Positions 21,047 through 32,247 of a stretch of 37,392 bases of DNA are shown here, piece by piece; position 1 is the first letter of the stretch; each line of letters begins with the position of its first letter. Source of the stretch: a virus; IMG/VR virus record IMGVR_UViG_3300037479_000222, positions 1-37,392 of that record; one strand, given 5' to 3'. Both the position numbers and the translations under genes were made by a program. The notes below the pieces were generated by a model. That model had not been told where the DNA came from. It did not search any database and worked only from the letters and a program-made list of their open reading frames with translations.

Positions 21047-21244
21047 TCAAGAATGCGATTTCTGAGGCCCACAGGCTTTGATATGGCCATCGAGTCTTTC
21101 AGTCATGACAGCCACGTCTCGTTTCACGTCACCAATTGTTCCGGCGAGTTTCCACAAGACGCCACCGACCGCAATAAAAGCCATGAGCATAGCGATGAAC
21201 ATCGTTACGACAGCAGGGTTGATATACATGTTGTGTGAGGTCAT
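21047..21244 (-). CDS. Holin-like single-TM protein, 65 aa
   Basis: MTSHNMYINPAVVTMFIAMLMAFIAVGGVLWKLAG is followed by a charged tail. It lies immediately downstream of the transglycosylase gene. The function is positional inference. Confidence 0.5.
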   Translation of the reverse strand: MTSHNMYINPAVVTMFIAMLMAFIAVGGVLWKLAGTIGDVKRDVAVMTERLDGHIKACGPQKSHS

Positions 21245-21286
21245 GTTGCGACTCTTTGGGGGAGTCAAAGTTGATAGGGCAATGTT

Positions 21287-21796
21287 TTAATCACTAAAGG
21301 CAAACCAGAGCAATAAGCCCGCGGCCCCTATTATAAGCCATACCGGGAAGTCTCCAGGGGAGACAGTCACTTGATCAAGATTGACAACAGAACTTTCAGT
21401 AAAGCCAGCCTGATTATAGATCGCTTGGGCATAAGCCTTTGCCGCGGCTGAAACCGTCCCGCGCTGGACGTTTCCGGGACCGCCATTGTAGCCCTGAAGG
21501 GCTTTGAGGTAATCGCCATTGAACATGGCTATCAGGGCAATCATATATCTGCCCCAGGCGTCGAGCGCGAGTTCAGGATTGTAGGCATTCGTATGAGGCC
21601 CAGAGCCGTAATCTTTCCATGTCGCCGGGGTGAATTGACTAATCCCTCTCTCACCCGCGCCGCCGACGAACGGCCCGAAGATCACATCCTGTCGCCAGCC
21701 TGATTCGCGTTGCATTTGAGCAAGGGCGATGTTCGGATCGATCCCGTACTGATTGGCTTTCGCGACAACTAATTGTTTGATCTCTTCAGTCGTCAT
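21287..21796 (-). CDS. Lytic transglycosylase (SLT domain) with a C-terminal TM anchor, 169 aa
   Basis: The SLT motif is IALAQMQRESGWRQD...GERGISQFTPATWKDYG...YNGGPGN. The C-terminal anchor is FPVWLIIGAAGLLLWFAF. Confidence 0.85.
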   Translation of the reverse strand: MTTEEIKQLVVAKANQYGIDPNIALAQMQRESGWRQDVIFGPFVGGAGERGISQFTPATWKDYGSGPHTNAYNPELALDAWGRYMIALIAMFNGDYLKALQGYNGGPGNVQRGTVSAAAKAYAQAIYNQAGFTESSVVNLDQVTVSPGDFPVWLIIGAAGLLLWFAFSD

Positions 21797-21799
21797 TTA

Positions 21800-21958
21800 T
21801 CATTCCCAACCCCAGGCTTTAAAAGCACGGTCGAGCAAATCACGCAAGGCCATCAATCTTGGCCGAAGTTTTACAGCCTTTGACCCATCAGGATTTTTTA
21901 CGACTTGCGTAAGCCAACTTTCAAAAGTCCCAAAAGCTATTGATTCCCACCAAGACAT
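21800..21958 (-). CDS. Hypothetical 52-aa Trp-rich amphipathic protein
   Basis: Translation is MSWWESIAFGTFESWLTQVVKNPDGSKAVKLRPRLMALRDLLDRAFKAWGWE. AGGAG lies 7 nt before the ATG. It fills the gap between two genes and is not in the track. Confidence 0.5.
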   Translation of the reverse strand: MSWWESIAFGTFESWLTQVVKNPDGSKAVKLRPRLMALRDLLDRAFKAWGWE

Positions 21959-21973
21959 AATTGCTTCTCCTGT

Positions 21974-22552
21974 TTAGTTTTGAACAAGTTCGATGATCGA
22001 GAGATTCTGAATTACGTCGTTATCCGCTGTCCCCTCACCGCTGACTAGCATAGTTATAGGGTTCAAGTTGAGATTAGGAAGCCCGGCAATAATCCCGTTG
22101 CGAACAGTAAACACTCCACCAGAACCAAAAGGAATATTGACATTCGCTGAATCTACACCCATCGCGTTAGCGCCAAAAAAATGACTCAATAAAACTGAGG
22201 TAGATGAAAGACGGACTATTCGCGCAGCAATCGCCCAACCCACACTGACAACAAGATCCCGAAGGCCAGTATCTTCCCATATCGTTCCGCCAAAACTAGT
22301 GACGACTCTTTTAAGATTGGCATTCGTCGCATAGTCACCGCCGTACCAAACATGCAAATAATCTCCATCACTTCGCAGACTGTTTGCGGGAAGGGAAAAA
22401 CTGTGAAGCGGATCAAGGCCTGCGCCCTGATTGCCAACTACCGCCGTATTGACTTCTATGTTGCGAACTAAGCCCACAAAACTAAACTCCCCAGTTGGCC
22501 GTTTGTGAAGCCCCAAGAGGCCCGCATGTCTTCGTTCATAAGAAAGCGCCAT
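21974..22552 (-). CDS. Spike/receptor-binding candidate B, 192 aa (N-terminal MALSYERRH)
   Basis: It shares the LSYERR N terminus with the upstream gene, while the rest is beta-rich and unrelated. The start lies 1 nt after the upstream stop. Confidence 0.7.
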   Translation of the reverse strand: MALSYERRHAGLLGLHKRPTGEFSFVGLVRNIEVNTAVVGNQGAGLDPLHSFSLPANSLRSDGDYLHVWYGGDYATNANLKRVVTSFGGTIWEDTGLRDLVVSVGWAIAARIVRLSSTSVLLSHFFGANAMGVDSANVNIPFGSGGVFTVRNGIIAGLPNLNLNPITMLVSGEGTADNDVIQNLSIIELVQN

Positions 22553-22553
22553 A

Positions 22554-30851: not shown

Positions 30852-30852
30852 G

Positions 30853-30915
30853 ACTATTTCCTAAAAAGCCAGATCAGAAGACCGATAAAACCAAGTGTGA
30901 GAAGCCCCGAAAACA
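30853..30915 (-). CDS. 20-aa hydrophobic micro-ORF (speculative)
   Basis: Translation is MFSGLLTLGFIGLLIWLFRK. Its stop lies 1 nt before the next ATG, whose SD (AGGAAA) is inside it. Confidence 0.3.
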
Positions 30916-31025
30916 TTGGGCGTTCGCAGCGTTGTGACGCTTCATTCCAAACAAGGCCGTGTTTCGAGCAATCAGGGACGGTCTTTTCTCTTCCCTCTCG
31001 TTTGTCGAAGTAAGTCGCCACACAC

Positions 31026-31289
31026 TCAACAGCCTTTCTTTATTGGCTTAAATTCAAGCTCGAACTCATCACCAATCTTTGCGCCTTCGGGCAAACAATC
31101 GAGTCGAACATCAACGCCTGAATCCCATTCACCAACAAACCGGAGATCGGCAATCAATATCGTTTCTCTTCCTGTCGGGTTTCGATTTGGGTTCATTAGG
31201 TGGCGTCTTCGGAATCCACGCTCCGTTTCGGCTATCTCTTCGGATGTGGGTTCGTAATGCTCTTGAAGTCCTACTAATCGCACTTTCAT
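31026..31289 (-). CDS. Hypothetical protein, 87 aa
   Basis: The start lies 2 nt after the upstream stop and the composition is normal. Confidence 0.65.
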   Translation of the reverse strand: MKVRLVGLQEHYEPTSEEIAETERGFRRRHLMNPNRNPTGRETILIADLRFVGEWDSGVDVRLDCLPEGAKIGDEFELEFKPIKKGC

Positions 31290-31291
31290 AG

Positions 31292-31645
31292 TTATCGTCC
31301 TCTCTTGCCCAACGTGAATAACAAGAAGCCGCCGACAATCAGCATGAGTGTCGTTTGTGATAGCTGAATCCCGCTTGACGGTTGCGGTTGTGCTCCAGGC
31401 GTTGGCGCAGGCACGGGAACCGGCGCGGGCGATGGCGTTGGAAACTGTGGATACGGTGGATAGCCGGCTACTTCTACAGTGGCGACCTGTGCGGCTCTCT
31501 CAATCGCCCGGTTGATTGAGTCTACGTACCAGGGCGTTTCGTAAGACGGCGCGCTTGCTGTTGGCTGTCTCGACGACCCTTCTTCAACCGGGACGATGTA
31601 ATCAACGTAAGGCAGGCCGAAATACTCAAATACTTGTTCGTCCAT
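31292..31645 (-). CDS. Tail-anchored membrane protein with a Pro-rich linker, 117 aa
   Basis: PYPQFPTPSPAPVPVPAPTPGAQPQP is followed by the TM TTLMLIVGGFLLFTLGKRGR. The start forms a TGATG overlap with the upstream gene. Confidence 0.7.
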   Translation of the reverse strand: MDEQVFEYFGLPYVDYIVPVEEGSSRQPTASAPSYETPWYVDSINRAIERAAQVATVEVAGYPPYPQFPTPSPAPVPVPAPTPGAQPQPSSGIQLSQTTLMLIVGGFLLFTLGKRGR

Positions 31646-32247
31646 CAGAGAATCTCCCAGGGAAGCTCAAATCCCCCGTCTAGTGTTTGTTGCCGCCAGC
31701 CCATTGGTTGGTCTTTGGCGACGGCATCAAGAGCCAACCATTCGCTACTGGGCATCAAGACTTCGCAATACACATGGCTTGCGCTCTCGCCGTCCACCCA
31801 CTGAGCTACGAAGCGAGGTCGAAGGCCGAGACACATCGCCAGCGTTGCGAGCAATACCGACAGGCTTACGCAATCGCCTCTCTTTAATTCGAGCGTTCGC
31901 CTTGCGTCCTGCAATGTCTGTTGATTTATCGGATGTGGTTCGTAGGTGATGTTGGCTATCACCCAATTGAACAGGGCGGCTATCTGACTTCGGGCATCGT
32001 GGTTGTTTGCGCCGGCAGTGATTTGATAAGCCGCCCTGATATTGAACTCGTCTTGATAGCCGCTGTAATCAGGACCGATGCGCCCCAACACGGCATCCCG
32101 CATTGCATCGAGCGTCATGAAAGTGGCGCCATCACCATCAGGTAACGGTCTGTATTCAATTGAGTGAGAGAGGGAGGCGGCGGGCGCAAGGCGTCTAAGC
32201 GGGTAGTAATCGCTAGTCCCAGAAAATGCGCCCATGTTTGCCGCCAT
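31645..32247 (-). CDS. Transglutaminase-like cysteine protease-fold protein, 200 aa
   Basis: The Cys-His-Asp core pattern is KRGDCVSLSVLLATLAMCLGLRPRFV...SHVYCEV...WLALDAV. It is the first gene of the late operon. Confidence 0.7.
   Translation of the reverse strand: MAANMGAFSGTSDYYPLRRLAPAASLSHSIEYRPLPDGDGATFMTLDAMRDAVLGRIGPDYSGYQDEFNIRAAYQITAGANNHDARSQIAALFNWVIANITYEPHPINQQTLQDARRTLELKRGDCVSLSVLLATLAMCLGLRPRFVAQWVDGESASHVYCEVLMPSSEWLALDAVAKDQPMGWRQQTLDGGFELPWEIL

Follow-up and report, generated by a model that had tools for sequence, protein, structure and literature searches.

We describe herein the late operon of a virus genome, IMG/VR record IMGVR_UViG_3300037479_000222, of which positions 1 to 37,392, the whole stretch analysed, are referred to as the window. 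The operon is a tightly packed array of minus-strand genes that runs from 32247 to 21287. We take it, with a probability of about 0.6, to encode the virion of tailless, double-stranded (ds) DNA bacterial viruses that form a lineage not described before, and in which a jelly-roll shell and a lipid membrane would be assembled around a condensed genome without the aid of a packaging motor. The lineage probably represents a new family or a higher rank.

On a public contig of identical sequence, genes that had been called independently gave, in the order of transcription, products of 200, 117, 87, 375, 223, 503, 247, 276, 107, 157, 355, 201, 236, 192, 52 and 169 amino acids (aa). Only two of them have a Pfam match, Transglut_core at 31645-32247 (E 5e-16) and SLT at 21287-21796 (E 1e-15). 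PHROGs recognises SLT alone, and NCBIfam has no significant match in the late operon. As all late proteins except these two enzymes are invisible to the three profile libraries, classifiers that depend on marker genes cannot place such viruses taxonomically.

Jelly-roll proteins of the late operon

The 355-aa product was modelled with AlphaFold2 (mean predicted local distance difference test score, pLDDT, 86.5; predicted template-modelling score, pTM, 0.85). Compared with the Protein Data Bank (PDB) by Foldseek, the model has its best match in the major capsid protein (MCP) of Sulfolobus turreted icosahedral virus (STIV; 2bbd_A, E 1.2e-5, probability 1.0, template-modelling (TM) scores 0.39/0.42). 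Further matches are STIV 3j31_A, capsid chains of Paramecium bursaria chlorella virus 1, PHM, DUF2961/GH172 and PNGase F, the last three being the set that Krupovic et al. described as cellular double jelly-roll (DJR) proteins (PMC8812541). The model consists of two eight-stranded barrels, each with a short helix (H119-122 and H296-300) between the fifth and the sixth strands. DJR MCPs carry helices that follow strands F and F' (PMC8812541), and the short helices of the model, in which the strands are unlettered, lie near that position. As modelled, the 355-aa protein is a double jelly-roll. In sequence, it appears to have no tie to any described DJR MCP family: the profile of its family has no match at E<=10 among all PDB sequences, the protein has no Pfam match, and a tblastn search of 50,697 GenBank phage records returned nothing.

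The gene immediately upstream encodes a 157-aa protein of a single domain, and profile-profile comparison relates it to both halves of the DJR protein (probability 99.65% for the N half and 99.7% for the C half, E about 1e-25). Compared with one another, the halves give a probability of 97% (E 4.7e-11 over 135 columns). Homology of the halves and the 157-aa protein is shown at the sequence level by these comparisons, and it indicates an internal duplication. The 157-aa protein is the best candidate for the penton protein. A preliminary description of the window had spoken of a series of beta-rich proteins that share a strand motif; the part of this claim that survives is the homology between the 157-aa and 355-aa proteins, and it does not extend beyond this pair. 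In particular, a relationship in sequence between the 276-aa protein and the 157/355 family was considered and found unsupported (hhalign probability 1-11%), and a likeness of the C-terminal "VTLxG" is one of fold at most.

This 276-aa protein is the product of the most conserved gene of the family, with 155 homologs (52-92% identity), all unannotated and many on contigs of 33-39 kb. Its model (pLDDT 76, pTM 0.76, 54 homologs used) has its best PDB matches in the capsid proteins VP4/VP10 of Sulfolobus polyhedral virus 1 (SPV1; 6oj0_Z and 6oj0_A, E 1e-3 to 4e-3, probability 0.93-0.99), followed by capsids of circoviruses, nodaviruses and bromoviruses. In BFVD there are 37 matches at E<1e-3, and those with names are mostly capsid proteins of circular single-stranded (ss) DNA viruses of the CRESS/circovirus type. 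The family profile has no similarity to any chain among the PDB sequences. The model thus points to a single jelly-roll, with the fold class alone secure because the TM-scores of the matches are low (0.24-0.44).

Directly 3' of the 276-aa gene is a GC-rich hairpin followed by a T-run, which is among the five most stable 40-nucleotide (nt) windows of its strand. A hairpin of -19 kcal/mol or below occurs at the equivalent place in 57 of 64 relatives, with differing stem sequences, compared with 7% of random segments. A conserved role in termination, in attenuation or in stabilising the mRNA is probable for it, as is a division of the operon at this point into a "core" and a "shell" half. Such a hairpin is a common punctuation mark of major capsid genes. 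It is conceivable that the particle has two layers, with the 276-aa protein and the basic proteins in a core or inner layer and the DJR protein in the outer shell.

Packaging motor, basic proteins and membrane anchors

The preliminary description held that the only Walker-A motif is GIGSVGKS in the primase-helicase, and a six-frame scan of the window with the pattern [AG]xxxxGK[ST] agrees: this is the sole motif in a real gene (the PrimPol-helicase at 13989-15977), and the other five lie in off-frame open reading frames (ORFs) of 14-68 codons. Searches of 40 proteins, which cover the genome, against Pfam, PHROGs and NCBIfam detected no terminase, portal, tape-measure, sheath/tube, tail or FtsK/HerA protein, and no terminase, portal or ATPase was found by PHROGs and Pfam among 20 further proteins encoded outside the operon. 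The earlier statement that no such gene is recognisable is therefore upheld by the profile searches and the six-frame P-loop scan. Either a terminase/portal pair or an FtsK/HerA ATPase would have spoken against that description; neither emerged from the profiles on the 40 proteins or from the structures of the two capsid candidates, the 355-aa and 276-aa proteins, which are the 2 of about 17 late proteins that were modelled.

The same holds beyond the window. Within 10 kb of the capsid genes, the span covered, no ATPase was found in about 30 relatives or in three contigs of sister groups, and no ATPase domain was called on any of the latter three. ORFs of at least 100 codons in the 26 loci of at least 9 kb contain no convincing P-loop. 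Given this absence from relatives and sister contigs alike, the ATPase-less state appears to be ancestral to the clade and not an assembly gap. It is likely that a virus-encoded packaging nucleoside triphosphatase (NTPase) is genuinely absent.

Two Walker-like strings were considered in the basic proteins. GWxxGGKT, found in some relatives of the 503-aa protein, was rejected as a P-loop: it reads GWQVGKKT in the window, is absent from many relatives, and sits in a brief conserved stretch with many Gly, Ser and Thr residues that has no partner Walker B. The second, GQKQSGKS in the basic protein of a sister group, stands at another position. The alignment of the 468-aa family contains no conserved GK[ST], and the profiles of the 468-aa and 201-aa families gave nothing meaningful against PDB sequences.

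As to the established groups, the 37-kb genome lacks the FtsK/HerA (A32-like) hallmark of Bamfordvirae-type DJR viruses, whose gene as a rule adjoins that of the MCP, and has no second gene with a Walker-A motif. The hallmarks of Caudoviricetes are missing as well, in that there are no profile matches, the two conserved structural proteins are jelly-rolls, and there is no terminase-type P-loop. In Helvetiavirae (P23-77/SH1-like), two vertical single jelly-roll MCPs go with an FtsK/HerA ATPase; the window has single jelly-rolls, but its tandem-domain protein is a DJR in fused form, and an ATPase is missing.

The operon encodes two proteins that had been called extraordinarily basic, which their composition bears out. 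The larger is called as 503 aa within a long ORF of 539 aa (27545-29164) that contains 126 K/R versus 34 D/E and has a pI of 11.5. Its N-terminus has a weak winged-helix resemblance, its linkers are rich in Lys/Arg, and its C-terminal domain of about 150 aa is conserved and shared with sister groups; this domain has no match in Pfam (each member of the alignment was scanned) and nothing meaningful among PDB sequences (profile). From its sequence, the 503-aa protein is a candidate DNA-condensing core protein. The smaller, called as 247 aa within an ORF of 268 aa, has a pI of 12.0, 43 K/R versus 3 D/E in its first 125 residues, and RRRNPVNPVNP twice. It is a candidate for a tether between DNA and membrane.

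A short motif, GFYDASG(T)FHPIR(A/S)xxDY, occurs twice in the larger basic protein (residues 231 and 310 of the 539-aa ORF) and recurs near the N-terminus of a sister-group basic protein (L073:5061-6983). The form common to the big basic proteins, GFYDxxGxFHPIRxSxDY, has no Pfam or PDB-sequence match. Amid basic sequence of low complexity, it has the look of a short, conserved element for docking or binding.

Membrane segments were called by a Kyte-Doolittle hydropathy scan. C-terminal hydrophobic segments were found in the 117-aa, 55-aa (30854-31021), 375-aa, 223-aa and 169-aa (SLT) proteins, and internal ones in the 247-aa and 107-aa proteins. The earlier count of at least seven mostly C-terminally anchored membrane proteins stands as to the number of anchored proteins, and fails for the 107-aa protein, which is not anchored at its C-terminus. 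From these predicted anchors, at least seven, and by analogy with other prokaryotic DJR viruses, we infer an internal lipid membrane.

Two of the anchored products have features of their own. The 55-aa segment, conserved in nine loci, is free-standing in the window and in L008, L009 and L012, and forms the N-terminus of the 375-aa-family protein in L001, L007, L010, L015, L033 and L036; the gene has thus been split or fused within the family. In the 375-aa protein, residues 189-320 comprise four Cys-bracketed repeats, CPTG(Y)...C(I/L/V)P, which follow a long Pro/Gln-rich linker, a layout that resembles the disulfide-stabilised stalk of a surface-exposed or receptor-binding protein.

The two enzymes are those named in the preliminary description, a transglutaminase-fold protease and a membrane-anchored lytic transglycosylase, as the Pfam matches and the C-terminal anchor of the SLT protein attest. 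The C126/H158/D174 triad of the protease and the catalytic E31-S32 of SLT are kept across relatives, and given this conservation of the C-H-D triad and the E-S motif both enzymes look active. At the distal end of the operon, the 236-aa and 192-aa proteins are candidates for vertex or receptor-binding proteins. They are the products of the least conserved genes (6 and 13 of 71 loci, respectively), which fits exchangeable proteins of host recognition, and they possibly have about 100 N-terminal residues in common, a weak similarity (hhalign probability 53%). A minor capsid role is possible for the 201-aa protein, and one in assembly or as a scaffold is a guess for the divergently transcribed 468-aa acidic protein.

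Genome, relatives and host

Positions 1-127 of the window are identical to positions 37266-37392, as found by comparison of the window ends. By this exact terminal overlap the sequence is a circular assembly and not a flanked prophage, and the genome is therefore complete at 37,265 bp. The term "prophage", used earlier, thus has to be dropped in favour of a circular episomal or virion-type assembly. The coordinates of the features are given in Table 1.

Table 1. Coordinates of features in the window (. denotes no strand)
Feature	Positions	Strand	Remarks
Direct repeat, overlap of the circular assembly	1..127	.	identical to 37266-37392
Primase-helicase, PrimPol + PriCT + AAA_25	13989..15977	+	sole P-loop protein of the genome; belongs to the replication, not the virion, module
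Lytic transglycosylase (SLT), 169 aa	21287..21796	-	E 1e-15; C-terminal membrane anchor
52-aa ORF	21800..21958	-	gene call
Variable 192-aa protein	21974..22552	-	present in 13/71 loci
Variable 236-aa protein	22554..23264	-	present in 6/71 loci
Conserved 201-aa protein	23265..23870	-	no detectable homolog
DJR protein, 355 aa (as modelled)	23873..24940	-	capsid protein candidate; 103 homologs
Single-domain paralog of both DJR halves, 157 aa	24945..25418	-	by profile-profile comparison
107-aa protein	25442..25765	-	one transmembrane segment; AGGAG ribosome-binding site upstream of ATG at 25765
GC-rich 13-bp hairpin + T-run	25784..25814	-	directly 3' of the 276-aa gene
Single jelly-roll protein, 276 aa (as modelled)	25843..26673	-	most conserved gene of the family
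247-aa protein	26721..27464	-	Arg-rich N-terminal half, then at least 2 hydrophobic segments; conserved in sister groups
Hyper-basic protein, 503 aa	27545..29056	-	ATG overlaps the upstream stop codon (ATGA)
223-aa protein	29053..29724	-	Cys-rich N-terminus; strong C-terminal transmembrane segment, residues 194-223
375-aa protein	29724..30851	-	acidic Gly/aromatic N-terminus, Pro-rich linker, Cys-hairpin repeats, C-terminal anchor (IPWWLWLAAAGLLLLS)
55-aa ORF	30854..31021	-	Cys residues; C-terminal transmembrane segment; conserved in 9 loci
87-aa protein	31026..31289	-	poorly conserved
Pro-rich protein, 117 aa	31292..31645	-	C-terminal hydrophobic anchor
Transglutaminase-fold cysteine protease, 200 aa	31645..32247	-	first gene of the operon; Transglut_core E 5e-16
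Acidic protein, 468 aa, pI 4.9	32470..33876	+	divergent from the late operon; kept across the family and on one sister-group contig; no P-loop

The window has a GC content of about 50% and no tRNA genes were found in it. From about 6 to 20.8 kb on the plus strand, Pfam and PHROGs recognise an early and replication module of phage type, which includes a DNA methyltransferase, a DnaJ-domain protein and the PrimPol/PriCT/AAA_25 primase-helicase; another protein of this module has weak, sub-threshold vWA matches. There are two tyrosine recombinases, at 2371-3507 on the minus strand and at 19926-20498 on the plus strand. No genes for conjugation or carbohydrate metabolism are among the Pfam matches of the window proteins.

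Several other features of the DNA may be recorded. Between 20400 and 33000 (12.6 kb), a region that includes the late operon, there is no match to a sigma-70-type promoter, compared with 9.4 +/- 2.9 in shuffled sequence; the reason is either a host that relies on promoters of other types or selection against internal ones. The genome's most stable 40-nt hairpin (-28.8 kcal/mol, minus strand, around 3515-3555) sits between a 123-aa ORF (3584-3955) and the integrase gene (2371-3507). Two plus-strand ORFs in overlapping frames, 9496-10032 and 9866-10405 (178 and 179 aa), each match phrog_1273, a family of unknown function, and appear to be adjacent paralogs. A direct repeat of 40 nt (35546-35585 and 35954-35993, 80% identical) ends in each copy in GGAGG and the start codon of one of two consecutive plus-strand ORFs (35583-35945 and 35991-36347), and may be a shared 5' regulatory element.

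About 150 metagenomic relatives carry the module, often on contigs of 33-39 kb. From IMG/VR and metagenomes, 71 related loci were retrieved, at least some of which are from groundwater by their contig names ("Hain"); the group occurs in soil and groundwater. The conserved core keeps one order, which starts with the divergent 468-aa gene and the protease; the big basic protein and the basic membrane protein follow, then the 276-aa single jelly-roll and a small transmembrane protein, and after them the 157-aa protein, the 355-aa DJR, the 201-aa protein and SLT. When 1.84 billion representative proteins were searched by HMMER, the DJR profile gave only 95 matches, among them tandem-domain proteins of 250-410 aa from a sister group. 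The three sister-group contigs are L072 (Logan SRR26786855, 21.9 kb), L073 (JGI 3300086675, 78.6 kb) and JGI 3300067032 (23.7 kb). The tandem jelly-roll capsid proteins of these lineages are shorter (266-271 aa), and L072 and L073, the two contigs for which DNA was available, keep a quartet in the order of big basic protein, basic membrane protein, single jelly-roll of the 276-aa type, and DJR. At 78.6 kb, L073 may represent either an integrated copy or a genome of larger size. An IMG/VR search anchored on the primase-helicase found no relative; the replication module is thus not conserved across the group.

Among described replicons, nucleotide and protein searches of the 50,697 GenBank phage records found no relatives, and none is present in 72,556 PLSDB plasmids. 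A scan of 185,579 species genomes returned a single match, a 4.7-kb contig of a metagenome-assembled genome (MAG), which lends no support to a common prophage. A full-text search found no description of the group in the literature. The E-S motif of SLT, the AGGAG ribosome-binding sites and the Blastocatellia and Pseudomonadota bins of the MAG contigs argue for a bacterial host rather than an archaeal one (Sulfolobales).

Alternative explanations and comparison with known systems

The preliminary description had suggested a tailless, membrane-containing virion module, icosahedral or pleomorphic. The first suggestion is supported by the DJR and single jelly-roll folds and by the absence of a second P-loop, with lipid as the analogical part, and we regard a tailless jelly-roll virion module as highly probable. 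Of the two shapes, jelly-roll folds favour the icosahedral over the pleomorphic one.

The particle that we propose would have a shell of jelly-rolls made of the 355-aa DJR protein (as trimers), the 157-aa paralog (probably as penton) and the 276-aa single jelly-roll. Beneath it would be a lipid membrane studded with at least seven virus-encoded anchored proteins, of which SLT would serve to cross the peptidoglycan at entry or exit, and the variable 236-aa and 192-aa proteins would sit at the vertices for host recognition. The circular genome of 37 kb would be neutralised and condensed by the soluble 503-aa protein and the membrane-anchored, Arg-rich 247-aa protein, the latter tethering the condensed genome to the membrane. 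Membrane and shell would then assemble around this nucleoprotein, as in SPV1 and polyomaviruses, with no pumping of DNA into a preformed procapsid. This mechanism of condensation and co-assembly has, in our estimate, an even chance of being right.

Several points weigh against the reading of the operon as the virion module of a motor-less lineage. The Foldseek TM-scores of the 355-aa model are modest (0.39-0.42), and cellular DJR enzymes score nearly as high as viral capsid proteins; those of the 276-aa matches are 0.24-0.44. Either of the two may be the major jelly-roll protein: the 276-aa protein is the more conserved (mean column identity of 63% for its family versus 44% for the 355-aa family) and its gene is punctuated by the hairpin, which, if it acts like a terminator, would lower transcription of the downstream DJR gene. 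Among the late ORFans other than the two modelled proteins, there may be a non-P-loop NTPase or a portal-like protein. Particle, lipid and proteome are predicted here from the genes, and the host clues consist of one Blastocatellia and one Pseudomonadota MAG contig. Lastly, adenoviruses have both basic, protamine-like core proteins and a packaging ATPase, so that the basic proteins of the operon are no proof of motor-less packaging.

This adenovirus pairing is one reason to ask whether the same tailless jelly-roll virus has its DNA pumped by an ATPase supplied in trans, either a host FtsK/HerA-type enzyme or one from a helper, with the basic proteins merely neutralising charge. Such a source would account for a genome that encodes no motor of its own and that, at 37 kb, is far above the sizes of the ATPase-less Odin group (7-11 kb; PMC5894146) and SPV1 (20 kb; PMC8459092). 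On the contrary, the ATPase-less state is kept across a deep clade whose morphogenesis module is otherwise complete and self-contained, and the virus has replication and integration genes of its own and is thus not satellite-like. No DJR virus is known to us to take its packaging motor from the host, and we consider supply in trans unlikely. Less likely again is an NTPase hidden in the genome, be it the PrimPol-helicase (AAA_25) doubling as a translocase or a deviant or non-P-loop ATPase in the 468-aa protein, the 201-aa protein or the C-terminal domain of the 503-aa protein. Structure models cover two late proteins, the 468-aa protein is conserved and directly adjoins the module, and some relatives of the 503-aa protein carry the Walker-A-like GWxxGGKT. 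This string, however, is degenerate in the window, missing from many relatives and devoid of a Walker B; the 468-aa family has no conserved GK[ST]; the profiles of the 468-aa, 201-aa and basic C-terminal domain families are empty against PDB sequences, as are the members of the last against Pfam; and P-loop ATPases are normally easy to detect (PMC5894146).

The closeness of PHM, GH172/DUF2961 and PNGase F to viral capsid proteins in the Foldseek scores, together with the lack of an observed particle for an operon known from genes alone, would also suit cellular-type DJR or carbohydrate-binding proteins on a plasmid-like or integrative element, engaged in surface remodelling or vesicle formation. 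We find this improbable: the best structural match is the STIV MCP; a tandem of three jelly-roll genes, beside those for membrane proteins, SLT and variable distal products, forms a layout of the PRD1/PM2 type; the contigs are uniform in size (33-39 kb) and are held in IMG/VR as viral genomes; and the element has neither conjugation nor carbohydrate-metabolism genes, nor a match among the 72,556 PLSDB plasmids. Divergence beyond recognition of the genes for an HK97 capsid, portal, terminase and tail, in what would then be a tailed phage, would explain why the late proteins are mostly ORFans without a database match, and is scarcely credible when the two best-conserved structural proteins fold as jelly-rolls and not as HK97, no terminase-type P-loop exists, and the largest late ORF (539 aa) is highly basic. 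The motor-less virion module therefore remains our preferred reading. A bolder version of it, which we offer as a tentative and rather doubtful proposal, is a bacterial counterpart of SPV1: a deep lineage, at the level of family or order, of icosahedral viruses with a membrane that would wrap a membrane-tethered, protamine-like nucleoprotein core with a dsDNA genome of 37 kb, without any NTPase motor, and would in addition have made a DJR protein by duplication within the lineage. In that proposal, the DJR would stem from a tandem duplication of the virus's own single jelly-roll capsid or penton gene, recent enough for homology to persist in the sequences.

The closest gene sets are those of Bamfordvirae/Tectiliviricetes, namely STIV (Turriviridae), PRD1 (Tectiviridae) and PM2 (Corticoviridae). 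They share with the window a DJR protein, predicted here, beside single jelly-rolls, a cluster of small membrane proteins, a membrane-anchored SLT (to which P7 of PRD1 is comparable), distal variable vertex genes and a tailless gene set. The window differs in lacking the other hallmark of that group, the FtsK/HerA (A32-like) ATPase; in a DJR protein that has no sequence similarity to known MCPs and whose halves are still homologous to each other and to a free paralog; and in an extra conserved single jelly-roll protein, two hyper-basic proteins and a circular genome of about 37 kb.

In SPV1 (Portogloboviridae), a circular dsDNA genome is held by a viral protein as a nucleoprotein core inside an internal membrane and an icosahedral shell of single jelly-rolls, and there is no packaging ATPase (PMC8459092, PMC8812541). 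The circular genome and the absence of a packaging ATPase are common to the window, where VP4/VP10 of SPV1 are the best PDB fold matches of the 276-aa protein, a match that is weak (E about 1e-3, TM 0.24-0.44) and has no counterpart in sequence. For the SPV1 core, the window offers the 503-aa and 247-aa proteins (pI 11.5-12) as candidate equivalents. SPV1 differs in its hyperthermophilic archaeal host, as opposed to the peptidoglycan-cleaving SLT of the window, in its genome of 20 kb and in having no DJR protein. The Odin group (7-11 kb) and Flavobacterium-infecting, lipid-containing phage (FLiP; ssDNA) are DJR viruses without a detectable ATPase, for which assembly around the genome was inferred (Yutin et al. 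2018, PMC5894146). They share this combination with the window, whose genome of about 37 kb, presumably dsDNA, lies outside both the 7-11 kb dsDNA and the ssDNA range, and whose hyper-basic proteins are not described for those groups in PMC5894146. The 355-aa profile matches no PDB chain, and hence not the FLiP MCP if this is in the library; Odin was compared by description. The adenovirus core (VII, V, mu) offers a DJR shell, a similar genome size and Arg-rich, protamine-like condensation, as is well established, whereas adenoviruses keep a packaging ATPase (IVa2), have no membrane, infect eukaryotes and possess linear genomes with terminal proteins.

The suggestion in the preliminary description that such a virion would be undescribed was thus too strong in denying any precedent, since SPV1, Odin and FLiP lack an ATPase; it holds in the narrower sense that the known ATPase-less jelly-roll viruses are smaller (Odin), ssDNA (FLiP) or archaeal (SPV1), and none is a bacterial dsDNA virus of this size. 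A packaging ATPase together with a DJR capsid protein is the signature of the PRD1-adenovirus lineage, and encapsidation without a motor has so far been confined to small genomes or to one archaeal family. If the present reading is true, a motor-less bacterial group of about 35-39 kb would extend this mode to a size at which pumping has been assumed to be necessary, with the 503-aa and 247-aa proteins as candidate condensing proteins for testing. The homology of the DJR halves to each other and to the neighbouring paralog provides a rare and testable snapshot of the origin of a DJR protein by duplication. Whether DJR MCPs arose from cellular DUF2961-like proteins or from duplicated viral single jelly-roll genes is under debate (PMC8812541), and duplication within the present lineage, if true, would bear on it, since a DJR capsid protein would then have originated a second time and independently.

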